This document shows positions 5,611 to 27,455 of a stretch of 27,455 nucleotides of DNA, piece by piece (position 1 is the stretch's first letter; every line of letters begins with the position of its first letter). The notes under the pieces were generated by a model. The model did not search any database, had not been told where the DNA came from, and saw only the letters and a list, made by a program, of their open reading frames with translations. A program made the translations under genes and the position numbers. The DNA lies in NCBI GenBank assembly GCA_011944185.1, contig GCA_011944185.1_3921.2. One strand, given 5' to 3'. The DNA is from a phage.

Positions 5611-6651
5611 ATGGAGAAGTACACATTAACAAAACTTCCAGATTCAGTTACACATGTCTTTATTGACTCTGACAGCATTGCCTATAAAGGTGCTTGTGTA
5701 GTTGAGAAAGCAAAGTATAAATACGTTAATAAACTCACAGCAGAAGAATCTGAACCATTTGATAATGCGAAAGATGCTGCAAGATGGTTAGCAGACCAGA
5801 GAATCCTTGTGGAAGAGCTTGGCCTGACATTTGATGAAGATGAATGGGAAAGACAAACTTGGAAAGAAGCTAAGAGTGAAAAAGAAGCTATCATGGCTAC
5901 TCAACAGGTGCTTCAGGAATGGCTTAAGGTTGTTGGTAAAGAAAGAACTTGGGTAGGTTATTTAACAGAGAAGGGTGTGCATAAACATAAAGACATTAAA
6001 GGTCTTGAGCACCAATATCAAGGTAACCGTAAAGATGCCGTCACACCAACACACTTAGTCGCTTGTCGTGAATACCTTTTATCCAGACCAGAGTTCAAGC
6101 TCTTAAAGGGAGGCTTCGAAGCCGATTCAATCGTAATTGCTAAAGCTGAAAAGATGGGTAAGAAGGCTGCTCTTATGAGTATTGACAAAGACCTTCGACA
6201 AGCTGAAGGAACTTATTGTATTGACATGACTTATGAAAAATCACCACTAATCTTTATTGCTGATAATAATGTTGGTGATATCTGGGATTGTCCTATCAAA
6301 TCAAAACCAAAAGCTGCAAAAACAGTTGGTGTAGGTTTTAAATTCTTGTGCTATCAGGCTGTTGCTGGAGATAATGCAGATAACTACTTTGGCCTTAAAG
6401 GTGCTGGTAAAGTAGCTGTGATGAATGCTTTAGATGGTAAAGAGACCTACAAAGAGTGTCTTGATGCTATCTATGAACTCTATGCTAAAAAAGACTCTTA
6501 CACCTATGTATCATGGGATGGACAGATTGTTACAAAGACACCGTTAGAGCTAATGGAACAGCATTTCTTCCTAGCTTATCAAGAAAGAAATCCAAAAGAT
6601 AATTTCTCTTTTAAGAAATATAATTGGGAGCCGTGTATGAATGAAGATTAA
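5611..6651 (+). CDS. 5'-3' exonuclease / flap endonuclease (FEN family, T5 D15-like)
   Basis: N-terminal VFIDSDSIAYKG resembles the FEN PIN-domain start; FEADSIVIAKA resembles the EADD acidic motif; GDNADNYFGLKGAGKVAV fits the H3TH motif GDxxDNxxGxxGxGxK. RBS GGAGAG before the ATG. Confidence 0.65.
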   Translation: MEKYTLTKLPDSVTHVFIDSDSIAYKGACVVEKAKYKYVNKLTAEESEPFDNAKDAARWLADQRILVEELGLTFDEDEWERQTWKEAKSEKEAIMATQQVLQEWLKVVGKERTWVGYLTEKGVHKHKDIKGLEHQYQGNRKDAVTPTHLVACREYLLSRPEFKLLKGGFEADSIVIAKAEKMGKKAALMSIDKDLRQAEGTYCIDMTYEKSPLIFIADNNVGDIWDCPIKSKPKAAKTVGVGFKFLCYQAVAGDNADNYFGLKGAGKVAVMNALDGKETYKECLDAIYELYAKKDSYTYVSWDGQIVTKTPLELMEQHFFLAYQERNPKDNFSFKKYNWEPCMNED

Positions 6652-7138
6652 AGGATTTGGCAATTGTCCTACCTATGGACATTGGGTATCTTTATGTGGG
6701 GAAGTTGACCCCACTAAACATTTTGGTTTTGTCTATTTAGTACACTGTAAGAAGACCGGACAATATTATATCGGAAAGAAACAGCTTAACAGTGTGACCA
6801 AAAGAAAAGTTGCTGGGAAGACTCGGAAGAAGGTAGTCACTAAGGAAAGTGATTGGATGACTTATGAGACTTCTTCTGAGTATATTAAAAAAGATATTGA
6901 GAGCTTTGGAAAAGAATTTTTTGACTTTTACATTATTCAAACCTACTACACAAAAGGTGGTCTAGTTTATGGTGAAGCAAATCTCCAACATAAATTCGAT
7001 GTAATGACAAAAAGGATTGACTCTAAGCTCAGACTCTTCTACAATGCCAATATTGCAGCAATTAAGTTTATCACTAAAGAAACTTATGAAGATGCTGAAA
7101 AAAGAATCCACAAGGTAATGAAAGCAAATTGTGCTTGA
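6641..7138 (+). CDS. putative GIY-YIG endonuclease-like protein
   Basis: GFVYLVHCKKTGQYYIGKK near the N-terminus fits the GIY-(10-11 aa)-YIG spacing of GIY-YIG nucleases (compare I-TevI GIYQIKNTLNNKVYVGSA). Start overlaps the exonuclease stop. Downstream catalytic Arg/Glu not confidently aligned. Confidence 0.4.
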   Translation: MKIKGFGNCPTYGHWVSLCGEVDPTKHFGFVYLVHCKKTGQYYIGKKQLNSVTKRKVAGKTRKKVVTKESDWMTYETSSEYIKKDIESFGKEFFDFYIIQTYYTKGGLVYGEANLQHKFDVMTKRIDSKLRLFYNANIAAIKFITKETYEDAEKRIHKVMKANCA

Positions 7139-17351: not shown

Positions 17352-17867
17352 ATGTATCTGTCAAATCTGAAACGTTCTGCTGCAATGTCAGTGTTAAGAC
17401 TCAGTTTTGAGGAACGTCAAGAGTTCATTGACTCCCACCAATACGACCCTTCCAACTCCAATCACATGATTCTCTGGAATCGTGAGAGTACTCGTGAAAG
17501 AGCATTATTTCGATATTACCCACACTACACCATAGACAACCTGTATGAATGTTTTGTTGTGAAGAACACCATTACAGTACTCAATAAACTTTGCAGATAC
17601 ACAGGCAGTCAATCCTTCACATTAGGCCACCACAATCCTGTTACAAAAGGTGGTGAACATCACTGTGCAAACTGGTTTATTCAGACTAAAGCTGATAACC
17701 AGAAGCAAGGAGATAGTCTTTTAAGTACCCCTAAGATGACCTATGAAGAGCAAGAGAGATATATCAAAAATAATATGCCAGATGTGCTTGACAACAACTA
17801 TACAGATTTGGCAATATCTCTCCTGTTGAAGTTCGAGATAGTTTATAGGGCAACTTACAATGGCTAA
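17352..17867 (+). CDS. putative HNH (His-Me finger) endonuclease
   Basis: LCRYTGSQSFTLGHHNPVTKGGEHHCANWFIQTKADNQKQGD fits the HNH pattern C..C...HH.P...GG...N...N.K; GGAG RBS. Confidence 0.5.
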   Translation: MYLSNLKRSAAMSVLRLSFEERQEFIDSHQYDPSNSNHMILWNRESTRERALFRYYPHYTIDNLYECFVVKNTITVLNKLCRYTGSQSFTLGHHNPVTKGGEHHCANWFIQTKADNQKQGDSLLSTPKMTYEEQERYIKNNMPDVLDNNYTDLAISLLLKFEIVYRATYNG

Positions 17868-18138
17868 AGAAAAGTGGGAGATTTTACCATTAGTCAGTGA
17901 AGGTGGTAATGGTTGTGAAATGTACATGATACGTGGTCATGTTCCAGAGCCAATTGCACTTGAGATGGTAAACAACTTTACAGATGGTTCTTACAAAGAC
18001 TTAGGCGAACCAACTGTCAAGCAACAATGGGTTAAACCTGTACCAGACAGCACAGGTAACTGTAGTGTACTTTATCACGTTGTAGACCCTGCAAAATGCA
18101 AATCTGCAATGGCAGTAACAAACATAACTTTTGATTGA
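17860..18138 (+). CDS. hypothetical protein
   Basis: 92-aa ORF overlapping the upstream stop. No motif recognised. Confidence 0.45.
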   Translation: MAKEKWEILPLVSEGGNGCEMYMIRGHVPEPIALEMVNNFTDGSYKDLGEPTVKQQWVKPVPDSTGNCSVLYHVVDPAKCKSAMAVTNITFD

Positions 18139-18149
18139 GAGAGAAAACT

Positions 18150-19031
18150 ATGAAAACATCTATACGTGTTACAGTTCATTCACCAACTAAAGGAACTCAT
18201 GAAGAAGAGTTTAACATCATCCAATTTCCTTCTGGTGAGATTGGTGGACACTTTTCGCCAGAGTTTGTTGATTTCACTGCTTATGCAGCATCATCCATCA
18301 ACAATGTGATTATGATTGTAAAAGGTTATGATAAGGACACATTGTTTGCTGTGGCACTTGCTAAAGAAGCAATTGATGATTTAATTCCTCACGATTATGC
18401 TTTAAAGACTGTCATCTTTTACTACTTACCAAATGCACGATATGACCGTCACATGTTTAAAGGCGACGCAGCAGCTTTAAAGGTTTTTGCTAAACAGATT
18501 AATGCAATGGGGTTTGGCGCAGTCTGTGCAGTTGACCCTCACAGCTATGTACCAGATAACCTGTTTAACTGCTTCCAGAGTATTCCTCAAAAGGAAATTG
18601 CAGTCCACTATGCAAATGACCCACTGATTGATTACTTAGTAGCCCCAGATGCAGGTGCTGCTAAGAAGATTGCAGAGACTGCTAAAGAGGTGGATAAACC
18701 ATACATCACAATGTCTAAGGTGCGTAACCTTAAGACTGGTGAAATTACTGGTATGCGAATCCTTGATGATGTTGATTTGACAGATAAAACCGTTATGATT
18801 CTGGATGATATCTGTGATGGTGGTCGAACCTTCATAGAAGCAGCGAAACATCTTCGTGAAGCAGGTGCAAAACGTGTGGAACTTTATGTAACACATGGTA
18901 TCTTCTCTAAAGATGTTGAAAACCTTCTTGACAATGGTATCGACCATATTTACACTACAAACTCTTTAGGCGAAGCTAAAGACCGTGGCTTAACACATTA
19001 TGGTCAAGTTACTGTAGCGAACCTTGATTAG
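18150..19031 (+). CDS. ribose-phosphate pyrophosphokinase (Prs)-family protein; PRPP synthetase or ADPR-pyrophosphate synthetase-like
   Basis: C-terminal half aligns with E. coli Prs as I recall it: VAPDAGAAKKIAE...VMILDDICDGGRTFIEAAKHLREAGAKRVELYVTHGIFS vs VSPDIGGVVRARA...[38 protein letters not shown]; DPHS resembles the Prs DLHA motif. The PRTase loop reads DGGRT where I recall DTGGT in Prs. The ORF track starts at a TTG at 18135; I prefer the ATG at 18150 after GAGAGAG. Confidence 0.75.
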   Translation: MKTSIRVTVHSPTKGTHEEEFNIIQFPSGEIGGHFSPEFVDFTAYAASSINNVIMIVKGYDKDTLFAVALAKEAIDDLIPHDYALKTVIFYYLPNARYDRHMFKGDAAALKVFAKQINAMGFGAVCAVDPHSYVPDNLFNCFQSIPQKEIAVHYANDPLIDYLVAPDAGAAKKIAETAKEVDKPYITMSKVRNLKTGEITGMRILDDVDLTDKTVMILDDICDGGRTFIEAAKHLREAGAKRVELYVTHGIFSKDVENLLDNGIDHIYTTNSLGEAKDRGLTHYGQVTVANLD

Positions 19032-19039
19032 GTAACAGT

Positions 19040-19531
19040 ATGAATAAGGGTTATTTTGAAAAATACCTAATATATGAACCAGATACAGGTTTATTAATTT
19101 GGAGAGTAACCCTTTGCAGTACCGCTATTGCTGGTAATGTGGCTGGCACAAAGTCTAAGAAGGGTTATATCCAAGTCCAGATAAATAAGAAGAGGTACTA
19201 TGCACATAATATTGCATGGATTATGTCTGGAGGTGAGATACCAAGTGGATATGAGATAGACCACATAGACCTTGATAAAGCTAATAATAAGTTGGAGAAT
19301 TTAAGACTTAGCACAAAGTCACAAAATCAGAGGAATAGGGGTATACACAAGAATAATAAAACTGGTGTGAAGGGTGTAAGTTTTTGTAAACAAACAGGTC
19401 TTTACAAAGCAAGAGTCATGCTTTACCATAAAGAATACTTTTGTGGAAGATTTAAAACGGTAGAAGAAGCAAAAGAAGCTGTAATTAAAAAGCGAATAGA
19501 ACTTCATGGTGAGTTTGCAAGACATAACTAA
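19040..19531 (+). CDS. free-standing HNH homing endonuclease with AP2-type DNA-binding domain
   Basis: YAHNIAWIMSGGEIPSGYEIDHIDLDKANNKLENLRL matches the HNH_3 pattern; C-terminal KTGVKGVSFCKQTGLYKARV...FKTVEEAKEA resembles an AP2 domain. Inserted between two functionally linked genes (Prs-like and Nampt-like). Confidence 0.75.
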   Translation: MNKGYFEKYLIYEPDTGLLIWRVTLCSTAIAGNVAGTKSKKGYIQVQINKKRYYAHNIAWIMSGGEIPSGYEIDHIDLDKANNKLENLRLSTKSQNQRNRGIHKNNKTGVKGVSFCKQTGLYKARVMLYHKEYFCGRFKTVEEAKEAVIKKRIELHGEFARHN

Positions 19532-19545
19532 GAGAGAGATAAAAT

Positions 19546-21327
19546 ATGAGTAAGTCACTTTACGCAGTACCAGCAGGTCTTAATGCAGATGCTTACAAGG
19601 CATCACATATATATCAGTATCCAGATGCTACGCAATATCTTATGTTAAACCTGACACCACGTAGTGATAAATGGTTTAACAGCCCTTTAGCAATTGACGG
19701 TGTAGTGGCTTTTGGTATTCAACGTTTTGTTAAAGATTACTTGATAGACCACTGGAACGCCACCTTCTTTGAACGTGACAAAAAAGAAGCAATTGACGAA
19801 ATCTTAGAAGTCATGAACGGTGTTCTGGGTAAAGATGCTATCGGTAGAGAACATTGGGAAGCACTTCACGACTTAGGCTATCTACCAGTTGAAGTATACG
19901 CTGTAGAAGAAGGCACAGTTGTTCCTATGCGTGTACCAATGATTGTCTTCCAGAACACTGTTTCAGGTTTCCATTGGGTAGCTGGGTATCTGGAAGATGC
20001 TTTCTCTGCTGAGATTTGGAAGGCTTGTACCATTGCAACTATTGCATTGCACTACAAACGTATCTGTAAGAAGTGGTCTGACCTTACTTGTGACAACGAC
20101 TTGCATTTGCCTTATCAGTGCCATGACTTTGCTATGCGTGGTATGTCCGGCTTTACTGATGACGCATTTAACGCTGTAGGCCACTTAACCAGCTTTAAAG
20201 GAACTGATAGCTTCCCTGCTGTATATACAGCTAAACGCATCTATGGACAGTCCTACCCAATCTCTGATATTGGTAGCTCTGTACCAGCCACTGAACACTC
20301 TGTGATGTGTGCAAACATTGCTTGGGAAGGTGGTAATGAGTTGGTTGAAGAAGAAAGACGCTTTAAAGGTGAGTTGCAAACCTTCCGTCGCTTCTTAACA
20401 GAAACTTATCCAACTGGTATTGCAAGTGTTGTTTCAGACACTTATAACTTCTGGAGAACTGTGTCAGAAATCTTACCAGCACTCCGTAAAGAAATTATGG
20501 AACGTGATGGCAAACTGGTAATTCGTCCTGACTCTGGAGACCCTGTACACATTGTCACAGGTTATAAAGCAATCCACTTAGAGTGTGCTAAAAAGGCTTA
20601 TTATGAGCACCTAAGCAATCTGGAAGCCAGTGACACAATGCTGAATGCTGTTCTGAACATGAAGCTTGAAAACATCAGCTATGGTATTGCTGGATGGCTA
20701 CTGTCAGAAGGCTACGAAATGGTTGTTGACAGAGAAGACTTTGAAGTTGCTGATACAGTGATGTTGAAGAACGCTTATATGGTTGGTTCTGCAAACGTTG
20801 TAACACGCCCTGTAGCAGAGATTGATGGAGCTATTAAGACCTTGTATAACATCTTTGGAGGAACTATTAACTCTAAAGGTTTTAAGGTACTGGATGAGCA
20901 CATTGGCCTTATCTATGGCGACTCTATCACGTTGGAACGTGCAAACGAAATCCTGAAGCGTCTGTATGAAATGGGGTTTGCAAGCTCTAACGTGGTGTTT
21001 GGTGTAGGCTCTTACACTTACCAGTACATGACTCGTGACACCTTTGCATTTGCTGTCAAAGCAACTCTTGCAAGCATTGGTGGCAAAGAGATTATGCTTG
21101 CAAAAGACCCTAAAACAGATAGTGGTGTTAAGAAATCTGCCTTTGGTGGTGTAGCACCTATGTGGGATGGTGAGAATTTGAAAGCTGTAGATGGCTATGG
21201 ATTCCAGAGCTTTGCAGATGCACTTGAACATCCAGCTTGTGCTTTACGTTTAGTCTTTAGCGACTCTGAGCAGTACGGTTACACAACTCTTGGTGATATT
21301 CGAAATAATATTGACAATCAGCTTTAA
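19546..21327 (+). CDS. nicotinamide phosphoribosyltransferase (Nampt/NadV)-family protein; possibly nicotinamide ADPR-transferase-like
   Basis: N-terminal LNADAYKASHIYQYPD fits the (D)xYKxxH signature of the Nampt/NAPRTase family; 593 aa; AGAGAGAG RBS; followed by a terminator. Catalytic residues not individually verified. Confidence 0.7.
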   Translation: MSKSLYAVPAGLNADAYKASHIYQYPDATQYLMLNLTPRSDKWFNSPLAIDGVVAFGIQRFVKDYLIDHWNATFFERDKKEAIDEILEVMNGVLGKDAIGREHWEALHDLGYLPVEVYAVEEGTVVPMRVPMIVFQNTVSGFHWVAGYLEDAFSAEIWKACTIATIALHYKRICKKWSDLTCDNDLHLPYQCHDFAMRGMSGFTDDAFNAVGHLTSFKGTDSFPAVYTAKRIYGQSYPISDIGSSVPATEHSVMCANIAWEGGNELVEEERRFKGELQTFRRFLTETYPTGIASVVSDTYNFWRTVSEILPALRKEIMERDGKLVIRPDSGDPVHIVTGYKAIHLECAKKAYYEHLSNLEASDTMLNAVLNMKLENISYGIAGWLLSEGYEMVVDREDFEVADTVMLKNAYMVGSANVVTRPVAEIDGAIKTLYNIFGGTINSKGFKVLDEHIGLIYGDSITLERANEILKRLYEMGFASSNVVFGVGSYTYQYMTRDTFAFAVKATLASIGGKEIMLAKDPKTDSGVKKSAFGGVAPMWDGENLKAVDGYGFQSFADALEHPACALRLVFSDSEQYGYTTLGDIRNNIDNQL

Positions 21328-25458: not shown

Positions 25459-25474
25459 TAAGTAATTTCTTAAA

Positions 25475-25500
25475 AGGCTGCTTCGGCGGCCTTTTTTATT
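25475..25500 (+). terminator. Rho-independent terminator (TTCG tetraloop)
   Basis: AGGCTGC-TTCG-GCGGCCT hairpin (one U-G wobble) followed by TTTTTT. Confidence 0.6.
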
Positions 25501-25558: not shown

Positions 25559-26107
25559 ATGAAGAAATTGATTCTAGGCTTGTGCTTAATGTTTACAGCA
25601 CACTTATCTTATGCAGTTGACTGCCCAGAGCTATCAATTAGCCAAAAAGTAAACATGTTAAAAGCTTACCAGTATGGTGAGAATAATATGGGGAAAGGCT
25701 GGGGTATTACTCTAGCAGCTATAGCCTTACAAGAGTCAGAGTTAGGTCTGAAGGTAGAGAATAAAAAGACCCACGACTATGGTATTTTCCAGAATCACTT
25801 GAAGACTGTTGTAAAGCGTAACAAAATTAGTCCTAATGTGGCTAAAAAGAAACTCTTAAAAGATTTTGACTATGCAGCAAAAGAGACGCATAAAGAGCTT
25901 GAGTTTTGGACTAAGGTACATGGTCACCCGAAGTCAAAGAAGACTTTACAAAAAGTTTTAGCATCGTATAATGCTGGGTATTCGTACAAAATCCCTAAAG
26001 CTAAGAAATACTCTCAAGATGTCTATAACAATATGAAAGTTATTGCTCAATGTGAATTTGCAACAAACATTTCTAAGGTAAATCATGAAAAAATTAAGAA
26101 AGTCTGA
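25559..26107 (+). CDS. secreted lysozyme-like / lytic transglycosylase (SLT)-domain protein
   Basis: N-terminal signal-peptide-like segment MKKLILGLCLMFTAHLSYA; LQESELG...HDYGIFQ resembles the catalytic Glu and G(L/I)xQ region of the lysozyme-like fold; later ASYNAGYSY resembles the AYNAG motif of SLT domains. AGGAGAA RBS. Confidence 0.5.
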   Translation: MKKLILGLCLMFTAHLSYAVDCPELSISQKVNMLKAYQYGENNMGKGWGITLAAIALQESELGLKVENKKTHDYGIFQNHLKTVVKRNKISPNVAKKKLLKDFDYAAKETHKELEFWTKVHGHPKSKKTLQKVLASYNAGYSYKIPKAKKYSQDVYNNMKVIAQCEFATNISKVNHEKIKKV

Positions 26108-26780
26108 TGAAGTCCTGTGCCAAGCTTATGACTTGCACCCTCATGAGTTAGGTCTTGATTCCTGTGTATGGACTCCAGAACAGTGCAGGGATTTTGAAGA
26201 CACTGCAAGAGAAGTTGTATGTTCACTGGAAGAGTTCCACACATCAGAACCAATTGTGAACGTTGTGGACAAAGAGACTGGGAAGTCTATAGGTGTAAGA
26301 CGTGACAGTTTAGTCATAGTCAATAAAGACCTTGTAGAAAAAGGTAACCTCATCTTAGCAGATATTGATGGTGTTCTTACAAATTTTAATCACGAAGATT
26401 GCTCAACGGAATTGACTGATGGGTCATTCTCACAGTATACTAATCTCCTTGACTCTGTAAGAGCAAAACCAACGTATGTTTTTAGTATTATTGATGCAAT
26501 TGCTAATCATGCTGCCATCGGACTCTTGACAGCAAGAGGTGAAACTCAGAGAATACCTACTGAGATGTTCTTGAGGCACAATATAGAGCATGATTACATA
26601 CTTTTTATGCGTGGTTTTGGAACTAACTCTCTAAGTGCAGAAAGTTTGAAAGTGAGGATGATTCAGTCTTGCATTCTGCCTTACTTTAATATAGTATGCT
26701 TTATAGAAGATACAGAGAAGAATGTTCAGAAGGTAAACAGAATCCTTCCACACATTAAAACCATGCTAGTTAAACATTGA
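26085..26780 (+). CDS. putative HAD-superfamily hydrolase (phosphatase/nucleotidase-like)
   Basis: LILADIDGVLTNF contains the HAD motif I DxDG(T/V)L; GLLTARGE is a candidate motif II; CFIEDTEKN is a possible acidic motif IV. Start overlaps the upstream gene by about 23 nt and is uncertain. Confidence 0.4.
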   Translation: MKKLRKSDEVLCQAYDLHPHELGLDSCVWTPEQCRDFEDTAREVVCSLEEFHTSEPIVNVVDKETGKSIGVRRDSLVIVNKDLVEKGNLILADIDGVLTNFNHEDCSTELTDGSFSQYTNLLDSVRAKPTYVFSIIDAIANHAAIGLLTARGETQRIPTEMFLRHNIEHDYILFMRGFGTNSLSAESLKVRMIQSCILPYFNIVCFIEDTEKNVQKVNRILPHIKTMLVKH

Positions 26781-26791
26781 GAGAAAAATTT

Positions 26792-27256
26792 ATGAACAAT
26801 ATCATTACGGTAGCACTGGACGATACGGCAAACAAATCTGAAGTAGTTCGTAAAATGATTCAAGGTAACTTTGAAGGTAAAATTTTTCGTGCTGTTAATG
26901 TAAAAGCTGATGGCAGTATTCGTGAATACCGTGCATTGTTGAATGTTAAAAAGCACGTAAAAGGTGCTGGTTCAACGACTGCACACAAAGAAAACCTGAT
27001 GACTATCTATGATATGGGTAAGGCTTCAGAGTTAGGTGCTGAAGGTATCGTTAAAGAAGGTGCTCCGTATCGCTCTTTCAATCTGGAAACTACTCTTATG
27101 CTTTCCTTTACAAGTGGTTCTAAAACAATCACTTATCTCTTTACTGATGCTGCAACGGTATCTGCTATTAAGGATAGCACTGTCAAAGCTGGCGTAGTTG
27201 CTGCTGCAAAAGCTTCTTCGATGGCTGCAAATATCCTTGCAAAAGTCCTCGGTTAA
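26792..27256 (+). CDS. hypothetical protein
   Basis: The ORF track starts at a TTG at 26777; first ATG at 26792 after GAGAG. Ala/Lys-rich C-terminus; followed by a terminator. Confidence 0.45.
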   Translation: MNNIITVALDDTANKSEVVRKMIQGNFEGKIFRAVNVKADGSIREYRALLNVKKHVKGAGSTTAHKENLMTIYDMGKASELGAEGIVKEGAPYRSFNLETTLMLSFTSGSKTITYLFTDAATVSAIKDSTVKAGVVAAAKASSMAANILAKVLG

Positions 27257-27267
27257 GGTTAAGATAC

Positions 27268-27292
27268 AGGCTCCTTCGGGAGCCTTTTTATT
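27268..27292 (+). terminator. Rho-independent terminator (TTCG tetraloop)
   Basis: AGGCTCC-TTCG-GGAGCCT hairpin followed by TTTTTATTTT. Confidence 0.65.
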
Positions 27293-27307: not shown

Positions 27308-27455
27308 ATGAAGCCGATGTTCAAATATCTTGGTGGTAAAACAAGAATATTAAAAGAGTATGAGCGTTTAGGTGTCTTCCCAGACAACTGTAAAAACTTC
27401 TATGACCTGTTTTCAGGTGGTGGTTCAGTAGCTATCTGGGCTTATAACAGATACC
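27308..27455 (+). CDS. dam: DNA N6-adenine methyltransferase (Dam-like), 5' partial
   Basis: FKYLGGKTRILKEY...FYDLFSGGGSVAIWAY matches the Dam N-terminus (GGK...L; F-x-D/E-L/P-F-x-GGG-S/A-V SAM-binding motif I). AAGGAG RBS. ORF runs off the window end. Confidence 0.65.
   Translation, partial: MKPMFKYLGGKTRILKEYERLGVFPDNCKNFYDLFSGGGSVAIWAYNRY

Follow-up and report, generated by a model that had tools for sequence, protein, structure and literature searches.

A Felix O1-like phage gene labelled as a polynucleotide kinase very probably encodes a T4 Pnkp-type phosphatase that has an acidic SH3-like domain in place of the kinase

The subject of this study is a gene located at positions 26085-26780 of a stretch of phage DNA of 27,455 nucleotides (NCBI GenBank assembly GCA_011944185.1, contig GCA_011944185.1_3921.2), which we will refer to as the window. 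The window belongs to a Felix O1-like myovirus (Felixounavirus, Ounavirinae), and in the 2-kb region around the gene it shares 92-97% identity with Escherichia phage REP7, Shigella phage Tf, Salmonella phage SP116 and over 200 further records. An original prediction, made from the letters of the DNA, had described the gene as coding for a HAD-like hydrolase with a DIDGVL motif, situated next to a gene with similarity to SLT domains. The open reading frame (ORF) and the motif, at residues 93-98, were both confirmed. For the sake of simplicity, we will call the gene and its product the HAD gene and the HAD protein. Altogether the evidence described below makes us confident that the HAD protein belongs to the T4 Pnkp clade of HAD phosphatases, looks active, lacks a kinase and carries a lineage-specific acidic SH3-like domain at its N-terminus. 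The features of the gene are the following, all on the plus strand:

26085..26780 (stop codon included), plus strand: whole gene, coding for a 231-aa protein of two domains (SH3-like N-terminal domain and T4-Pnkp-type HAD phosphatase); from the ORF list, with ATG start and TGA stop
26074..26079, plus strand: Shine-Dalgarno-like TAAGGT, 6 nt before the ATG of the HAD gene and within the 3' end of the upstream SLT-like gene; from direct reading of the sequence
26085..26345, plus strand: N-terminal domain, residues 1-87, a small acidic beta-barrel with two short helices
26346..26777, plus strand: HAD (DxDxT acylphosphatase) domain, residues 88-231
26361..26378, plus strand: HAD motif I, D93-I-D95-G-V-L (residues 93-98); D93 and D95 align with D165 and D167 of T4 Pnkp
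26379..26471, plus strand: cap/flap segment, residues 99-129, with a predicted beta-hairpin (107-110, 115-117); from the secondary structure of the model and the alignments
26529..26537, plus strand: HAD motif II, T149-A-R151, corresponding to T4 S211-G-R213 by alignment
26610..26612, plus strand: R176, corresponding to T4 R246, nearly invariant across the family
26649..26651, plus strand: HAD motif III, K189, corresponding to T4 K258 by hhalign and MAFFT
26706..26711, plus strand: HAD motif IV, E208-D209 (predicted Mg2+ ligands), corresponding to T4 D277-D278 by alignment

The start of the HAD gene overlaps the SLT-like gene (25559-26107) by 23 nt, so that the predicted adjacency holds, and this overlap suggests that translation of the two genes may be coupled. 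Compared pairwise with two relatives, the HAD gene gave ratios of nonsynonymous to synonymous substitution rates (dN/dS) of 0.05-0.09. These values were as low in the N-terminal third as in the C-terminal two thirds, and therefore the whole protein is under purifying selection. The HAD protein has no signal peptide and would be a cytoplasmic phosphatase.

Fold and family

Structure prediction and a profile search had been proposed as checks of the HAD assignment. Two findings had been named that would speak against it, the lack of a HAD fold in the predicted structure and a first Asp of DxD that varies among homologues, and both tests turned out in its favour. The predicted structure of the HAD protein is a Rossmannoid alpha/beta HAD fold, and the nearest relatives of the HAD domain, by structure as well as by profile, are the phosphatase domains of Pnkp proteins, the identity to the T4 Pnkp phosphatase being ~16-17%. 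In the case of the profile search, a profile of 33 sequences matched Pnkp1 at 1.4e-35 and T4 Pnkp at 1e-25. Next after Pnkp by sequence were the class B and class C acid phosphatases (E 1.9e-7 to 5e-3, with the wider family profile A2).

Similar relations could be detected among phage proteins. In the PHROGs collection the HAD protein matched phrog_3970 over its full length (E=6.5e-132), and weaker matches (E 3.6e-5 to 7.8e-4) were found to phrog_415, phrog_505 and phrog_4889, all of which are annotated as polynucleotide kinase. Searched against 1.84 billion library proteins, the close-homologue profile extended to proteins of ~300 aa, namely P0022 at 7.1e-6 and P0025 at 8.5e-6. These have GLPGSGKS/T P-loops in their N-termini and are therefore T4-Pnk-like bifunctional enzymes.

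Simpler searches were less informative. Pfam-A and NCBIfam gave no meaningful match for the HAD protein, and a single-sequence phmmer search against the PDB returned noise only. With the close-homologue profile, the top match in the PDB was the TALE repeat protein Hax3 (E=0.015), which we rejected as a chance match summed over many repeats. Its source is the pattern VLCxAxxLxP at residues 9-22 (26109-26150), where VLCQAYDLHPHELG resembles the TALE repeat consensus VLCQAHGLTPQQV, and the match was judged to be due to chance because this segment forms a strand and a short helix in the model.

Catalytic residues

To map residues onto T4 Pnkp, a HMMER alignment to 1ltq, addition with MAFFT, hmmalign and the 33-sequence alignment were used. 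Because hhalign covered motifs III-IV only, the mapping relies on the last two of these. The pairs kept between T4 Pnkp and the HAD protein are D165/D93, D167/D95, S211/T149, R213/R151, R246/R176, K258/K189, D277/E208 and D278/D209. Thus motifs II and IV, which the original prediction had called plausible in the C-terminal part, do align with their T4 counterparts. Within the HAD protein family, D93, D95, R151, K189 and D209 are invariant in 33/33 aligned homologues, down to an identity of ~20%, and G96 and R176 are nearly so. This includes the first Asp of the DxD motif, on whose conservation the prediction of a HAD enzyme had been made to depend. Between motif I and the next helix, the cap/flap segment is ~10 residues longer than that of T4 Pnkp, and D112-G113, Y118 and S124 are conserved within it.

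The roles of the T4 residues are well described. The aspartyl-phosphate intermediate arises on D165, and D167 serves as the general acid/base; contacts to the phosphate come from K258 and S211, and Mg2+ is held by D165 together with D278 (Das & Shuman 2013, PMC3592404). The counterparts of all the residues with these roles are kept, and therefore the full catalytic apparatus is present in the HAD protein. By this mapping, D93 is predicted to be the nucleophile and D95 the acid/base, whereas T149 and K189 would contact the phosphate and E208/D209 would be the Mg2+ ligands. Two of the pairs are exchanges, and Thr for S211 and Glu for D277, both of which the HAD protein has, reportedly leave T4 Pnkp fully active. 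T4 R246, the counterpart of R176, is said to hold the penultimate phosphodiester together with R279.

The N-terminal domain and the missing kinase

The N-terminal ~80 residues had been predicted to be distinct from the rest, and residues 1-87 indeed form a separate SH3-like barrel. This domain sits where T4 Pnkp has its P-loop kinase domain. Modelled alone, it gave a confident fold (predicted local distance difference test, pLDDT, 87), and structure comparison showed this fold to be SH3-like and not that of a P-loop nucleoside triphosphatase. A search of BFVD, a collection of predicted viral structures, gave no significant match to the fold outside the same family, and the N-terminal domain is restricted to the Ounavirinae-type lineage. 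In all close homologues its net charge is -4 to -8 and its pI 4.5-5.4, as compared to a net charge of +8 for the T4 kinase domain. The conserved polar residues D36, D39, T40, R42, H52, D62 and T65 suggest that the domain may present a specific surface.

The evidence for the absence of a kinase is as follows. Firstly, the HAD protein contains no Walker A motif (GxxGxGKS). The sequence ETGKS at residues 64-68 was considered as a degenerate P-loop and rejected, as it lacks the upstream Gly, sits in a beta-hairpin turn and shows no conservation of K67 and S68. Secondly, a hidden Markov model built from the T4 Pnkp kinase domain and seven P-loop-bearing relatives was searched against ORFs of at least 40 aa, taken from the window and from 86 of the 89 kb of Salmonella phage HMD-P8, and gave no match at E<=10. 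Among the sizeable ORFs, Walker A motifs occurred only in the primase/helicase, the terminase and one unassigned 187-aa ORF on the minus strand.

In GenBank the HAD gene is labelled “polynucleotide kinase” or “PseT 5'-kinase/3'-phosphatase”. Judged from the sequence, the kinase half of this label is wrong. A study of retron Eco2 that names both Felixounavirus and a polynucleotide kinase has no bearing on the label, since it uses the kinase as a laboratory reagent. One entry of BFVD, A0A385IS66 of Salmonella phage Meda, is a 108-aa “polynucleotide kinase” whose identity of 95% is confined to the N-terminal domain. This points either to a sequencing frameshift or to at least one isolate in which the gene is truncated or split. 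A short copy of this kind fits the dispensability of the HAD gene described below.

Proposed activity

With the chemistry of the T4 enzyme retained and the kinase missing, the HAD protein may act as a stand-alone 3'-phosphoesterase, whose substrates would be the ends of DNA or RNA, or else nucleotides with a 3'-phosphate; we consider the chances of this assignment to be about evenly balanced. In such a scheme, Mg2+-dependent hydrolysis of the phosphomonoester by way of an aspartyl-phosphate on D93 would take the 3'-phosphate off these ends or nucleotides and leave a 3'-OH, and a 2',3'-cyclic phosphate could possibly be opened as well. The resulting 3'-OH ends could then serve the DNA polymerase and the DNA ligase of the phage.

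RNA repair after attack by anticodon nucleases, which had been mentioned as a role of phage HAD phosphatases, fits less well. Such repair needs a 5'-kinase and an RNA ligase. In T4, pseT lies ~1.4 kb from rnlA. The genome of phage HMD-P8 encodes a DNA ligase, a DNA polymerase, an exonuclease and an array of at least 14 tRNA genes, and has no annotated RNA ligase. Searches by phmmer with T4 Rnl1 and Rnl2 gave no match either, in an insensitive single-sequence test that, with T4 PseT as the query, likewise missed the HAD gene. Since neither the window nor the 86 kb of HMD-P8 yielded a Pnk-type kinase, and the annotation of HMD-P8 lists no RNA ligase, a T4-style tRNA repair by kinase, phosphatase and ligase is not evident, and for the same reason a kinase-independent healing of 3' ends is likelier than such tRNA repair. 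Compared with T4 Pnkp, the oligomeric state, the binding of partners or the choice of substrate has probably been changed by the N-terminal domain, by the remodelling of the cap loop and by the loss of the tail (see below).

Observations that weigh against the assignment

Several observations speak against reading the HAD protein as a Pnkp-type 3'-phosphatase. Firstly, the direct link to solved Pnkp structures is weak, as the profile of close homologues reached Pnkp1 in the PDB only at E=0.49, and in hhalign the alignment of close homologues matched the phosphatase domain of T4 with a probability of 33%, over motifs III-IV only. Secondly, four T4 residues are replaced in the alignments (R176 by E104, D187 by A127, D254 by A185 and R279 by T210), and the C-terminal xGxF tail is absent, the HAD protein stopping directly after its last strand (…TMLVKH). 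In T4 Pnkp, R176, D187 and D254 are said to be essential, with an architectural rather than a catalytic role. The C-terminal tail of the T4 phosphatase (residues ~292-300) is part of the dimer interface and is required for activity. Thirdly, an acidic N-terminal domain is not the usual look of a nucleic-acid-binding module, and nucleic-acid repair is not hinted at by the neighbouring genes either, one of which codes for a probably periplasmic SLT-like protein and the other for a protein of unknown function.

The four replacements, the longer cap loop and the loss of the tail are common to the whole subfamily that bears the N-terminal extension, and are not found in most of the ~150-aa and ~300-aa relatives. 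Our reading is that the chemistry is conserved, and that the surfaces on the substrate side and those for oligomerisation would have been remodelled relative to T4 Pnkp.

A further point comes from phage Bas63 (MZ501086), in which bas63_0087 (g87) is 96% identical to the HAD protein and lies in the same gene context. Four data sheets of a genome-wide knockout screen, PhageMaP, were taken in, in which a negative score denotes an essential gene (bioRxiv 10.1101/2024.10.10.617714). On the two sheets for laboratory hosts g87 scored +0.45 to +0.84; on the two sheets for the defence panel the replicates were noisy, ranging from -0.65 to +1.21; and the mean knockout fitness was positive in 4/4 sheets. 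The main text of that study, which deals with counters and triggers of 12 defence systems, does not mention g87 (bioRxiv 10.1101/2024.10.10.617714). Going by these sheets, the HAD gene is dispensable on laboratory E. coli, like pseT of T4. The earlier idea of a nucleotide-pool or anti-defence enzyme thus gained no support, since g87 is dispensable there and is not highlighted as a counter-defence gene in the main text of that study, and it stands as a suggestion.

Alternative explanations

Another possible substrate is a small molecule. The HAD protein could be a nucleotidase for pool management, acting on 3'-nucleoside monophosphates or their deoxy forms (3'-NMP/3'-dNMP), on pNp/pAp or on 5'-nucleotides such as nicotinamide mononucleotide (NMN), and not on polynucleotide ends; we regard this as unlikely, but as deserving serious attention. 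The region upstream is rich in genes that would fit such a role, coding for aerobic and anaerobic ribonucleotide reductases and for MazG-like, phosphoribosyl pyrophosphate (PRPP)-synthetase-like and NAMPT-like proteins. The acid phosphatases of classes B and C, the next-closest families, point in the same direction, as class C includes the outer membrane protein P4, a NADP phosphatase. The lost equivalent of T4 R279 and the longer cap loop are features of HAD enzymes with small substrates, the acidic N-terminal domain is also in line with one, and T4 Pnkp itself hydrolyses 3'-dNMPs. However, the retained R176 is the equivalent of the T4 residue that is said to bind the neighbouring phosphodiester, and the HAD gene lies outside the operons for nucleotide metabolism, in a terminator-bounded unit of its own with the SLT-like gene. 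Moreover, the production of nucleosides would be of no obvious help to a phage that needs dNTPs.

A quite unlikely alternative is that the HAD protein is a counter-defence phosphatase for a phosphoester other than nucleic acid, such as a phosphorylated breakdown product of NAD+ or an immune signal (for example phosphates of ADP-ribose (ADPR) or NADP-like molecules) or a danger nucleotide, with the N-terminal domain providing specificity or a protein partner. The same phage lineage has the NARP1 gene pair, whose Bas63 members g79/g80 were validated against Sir2-HerA, and phage phosphatases that extend NARP1 do exist (bioRxiv 10.64898/2026.01.28.702374). The dispensability seen in the sheets for laboratory hosts is usual for accessory counter-defence genes, and the residues on the substrate side are remodelled in comparison to T4 Pnkp. 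Against this, the NARP1-extending phosphatase Adpp is a Macro-domain and not a HAD protein, Felixounaviruses have a Macro-type putative phosphatase of their own, and the HAD and NARP1 genes are not neighbours. Furthermore, g87 is not discussed in the PhageMaP screen of 12 systems, and no similarity to known anti-defence proteins was found.

A related idea, to which we give little weight, is that the N-terminal domain and the remodelled cap retargeted a Pnkp-type phosphatase from ordinary nucleic-acid ends to a defence-related phosphoester or to a protein partner of the host. Targets of this kind might be a 3'- or 2'-phosphorylated product of NAD+ or ADPR, a signalling or danger nucleotide, or DNA nicks with 3'-phosphates left by a specific immune nuclease.

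It is highly improbable that the HAD protein is a catalytically dead HAD fold with a binding or scaffolding role: the equivalents of R176, D187 and D254, said to be essential in T4, are E, A and A, and the dimer-forming tail is missing, but these lost residues are reportedly architectural and not catalytic in T4, the nucleophile, the acid/base, the Lys, the Thr and the metal-binding acids are invariant or conservatively kept down to ~20% identity, and dN/dS is 0.05-0.1, while pseudo-enzymes normally lose these very residues.

Distribution and the three-gene unit

By tblastn, the HAD gene was found in 302 phage records. The HAD protein is 93-98% identical in Felixounavirus (more than 200 records) and 57-59% identical over its full length in Moogle- and Sf18-like phages; in ~85-kb phages of Erwinia, Hafnia, Pectobacterium and Salmonella the identity is 35-38% and covers residues ~85-228 only. 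Two GenBank records named “Campylobacter phage A132” and “A126” (MG065664.1, MG065668.1) are 93.5% identical over the full region; an enterobacterial Felix O1-like sequence in records of this name suggests that they are mislabelled or contaminated.

The HAD gene is the middle one of a unit of three genes, which has the following further features:

25472..25495, plus strand: terminator-like hairpin after rIIB, upstream edge of the three-gene unit; from a consensus scan, function predicted
25559..26107, plus strand: upstream partner, coding for a 182-aa SLT-like protein (phrog_600, function unknown); from the ORF list, PHROG match and synteny
26792..27256, plus strand: downstream partner, coding for a 154-aa protein (phrog_2267), third of the triad, 11 nt after the HAD gene
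27268..27285, plus strand: terminator-like hairpin after the third gene, downstream edge of the unit; from a consensus scan, function predicted

The similarity of the upstream neighbour to SLT domains, taken from the original prediction, is weak, since the Pfam SLT match (E=0.0012, 18.8 bits) lies under the gathering score of 21.3 bits. Its N-terminus resembles a signal peptide (MKKLILGLCLMFTAHLSYA followed by VD, of apparent Sec type), and therefore the SLT-like protein is probably exported and periplasmic. The gene is distinct from the endolysin and the spanins, which are annotated elsewhere in relatives. The 154-aa protein of phrog_2267 gave no Pfam or PDB sequence match, and in PDB sequence searches with both neighbour proteins nothing was found.

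The triad of SLT-like, HAD and phrog_2267 genes is kept just downstream of rIIA/rIIB in the distant phages PMBT37 and Wc4, where the neighbours are 36-56% identical to those of the window and the SLT-like gene is syntenic at 36-44% identity. In all relatives examined the SLT-like gene is syntenic with the HAD gene. The two genes would share a conserved co-transcription, with no mechanistic link apparent between them.

Some further observations concern the surroundings of the unit. In T4, pseT is followed by pseT.2 and pseT.3, which are annotated as Rz-like spanins, and in Felix O1-like phages the gene of the Pnkp-type phosphatase lies 0.5-2.5 kb from the i-/o-spanin pair. This proximity to spanins may be a coincidence or an old shared gene neighbourhood. 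A gene for a Dam-like DNA methyltransferase starts at 27308 and continues past the end of the window. Many Felixounavirus genomes that are otherwise ~97% identical align only to ~27293, and in Bas63 the spanins follow directly, so that the methyltransferase gene has the appearance of a variable insertion just behind the terminator.

The NARP1-like genes and other genes of the window

Further upstream, the window contains an ORF at 18135-19031 that is PRPP-synthetase-like (Pfam Pribosyltran and Pribosyl_synth) and a 593-aa NAMPT-like ORF at 19546-21327. Together these look like the NAD+-reconstitution pair of NARP1 (Adps, Namat). They are separated by an ORF at 19040-19531 that is annotated as a HNH homing endonuclease in relatives. 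For the orthologues of the pair in Bas63, g79 and g80, a counter-defence effect against Sir2-HerA, retron Ec86 and hhe has been validated by experiment (bioRxiv 10.1101/2024.10.10.617714). Adpp, the phage phosphatase that extends NARP1, is a Macro-domain enzyme encoded within two genes of Adps/Namat (bioRxiv 10.64898/2026.01.28.702374). The HAD gene was considered as this NARP1-associated phosphatase (Osterman et al. 2026) and rejected, as it has a HAD and not a Macro fold and no Pfam Macro match. The NARP1-like pair is upstream of it, at a distance of ~5 kb and several genes. In Felixounaviruses a separate Macro-type “putative phosphatase” lies ~4 kb downstream of the HAD gene, outside the window.

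The region of nucleotide metabolism is heavily populated by mobile nuclease genes, with HNH and GIY-YIG ORFs, including a SegE-type GIY-YIG homing endonuclease at 6641-7138 (Pfam E=9.4e-28). The ORF at 17352-17867 corresponds by position to g77 of Bas63, a GIY-YIG-domain protein reported to counter retron Ec67 (bioRxiv 10.1101/2024.10.10.617714).

Comparison with known systems

In T4 Pnkp (pseT; PDB 1ltq, 5uj0), the phosphatase (aa 148-301) is preceded by a P-loop kinase, whereas here the corresponding position is taken by an unrelated acidic SH3-like domain. T4 also has rnlA near pseT; in the related phage HMD-P8 no RNA ligase is annotated. In the case of the bacterial Pnkp1 (Pnkp1-Rnl-Hen1, PDB 4xrp), an N-terminal kinase is present and the protein is part of a complex with ligase and methyltransferase; such partners were not found here.

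The phage phosphatases of phrog_415, phrog_505 and phrog_4889, either stand-alone (~150 aa) or fused to a kinase (~300 aa), belong to the same domain family (profile matches P0019-P0054). The ~150-aa forms likewise lack a kinase, and none of these types has the N-terminal barrel. Most of them keep an Arg after motif I, an Asp four residues before the Lys of motif III, an Arg after motif IV and a GxF tail, whereas the HAD protein of the window has neither these Arg/Asp/Arg residues nor the tail.

Kinase-less HAD enzymes that act as DNA 3'-phosphatases are known from eukaryotes, namely yeast Tpp1 and Arabidopsis ZDP, the latter with an extra N-terminal targeting domain. Their likeness to the HAD protein is a functional analogy only. 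The acid phosphatases of classes B and C (AphA, e(P4)) and the plant vegetative storage protein are secreted or periplasmic, have helical caps and act on mononucleotides; the HAD protein lacks a signal peptide, and its fit to these enzymes is clearly poorer than that to Pnkp. Adpp, which acts on ADPR-1''-phosphate, is likewise a phage phosphatase of genomes with NARP1, with its gene inside the NARP1 operon (bioRxiv 10.64898/2026.01.28.702374).

Implications

The identification as a HAD protein is not new, because the family is catalogued (phrog_3970) and the similarity to PseT is already given in GenBank. What is new is that the kinase label is wrong, that an acidic SH3-like domain of its own makes up the N-terminal third, that several architectural residues and the tail of the T4 enzyme are lost, and that partners for repair seem to be missing. 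The correction of the label concerns many records of Felixounavirus and Ounavirinae among the matches listed, as well as phrog_3970. Because the HAD protein lacks a kinase domain, and the sequences covered showed neither a Pnk-type kinase nor an annotated RNA ligase, T4-style tRNA repair should not be assumed in therapeutic phages such as Felix O1, Bas63 and their relatives.

The HAD gene is conserved, constrained and dispensable, with its catalytic residues intact, a profile that is typical of genes for host range or counter-defence, and the existing Bas63 knockout library already covers an orthologue that is 96% identical. If the substrate of the HAD protein is an ordinary 3'-phosphate end, the protein would be a routine addition to the Pnkp family. 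If the retargeting to a defence-related phosphoester or host partner were true, it would represent a new type of HAD counter-defence enzyme, in phages that already carry NARP1 and a Macro-type phosphatase.

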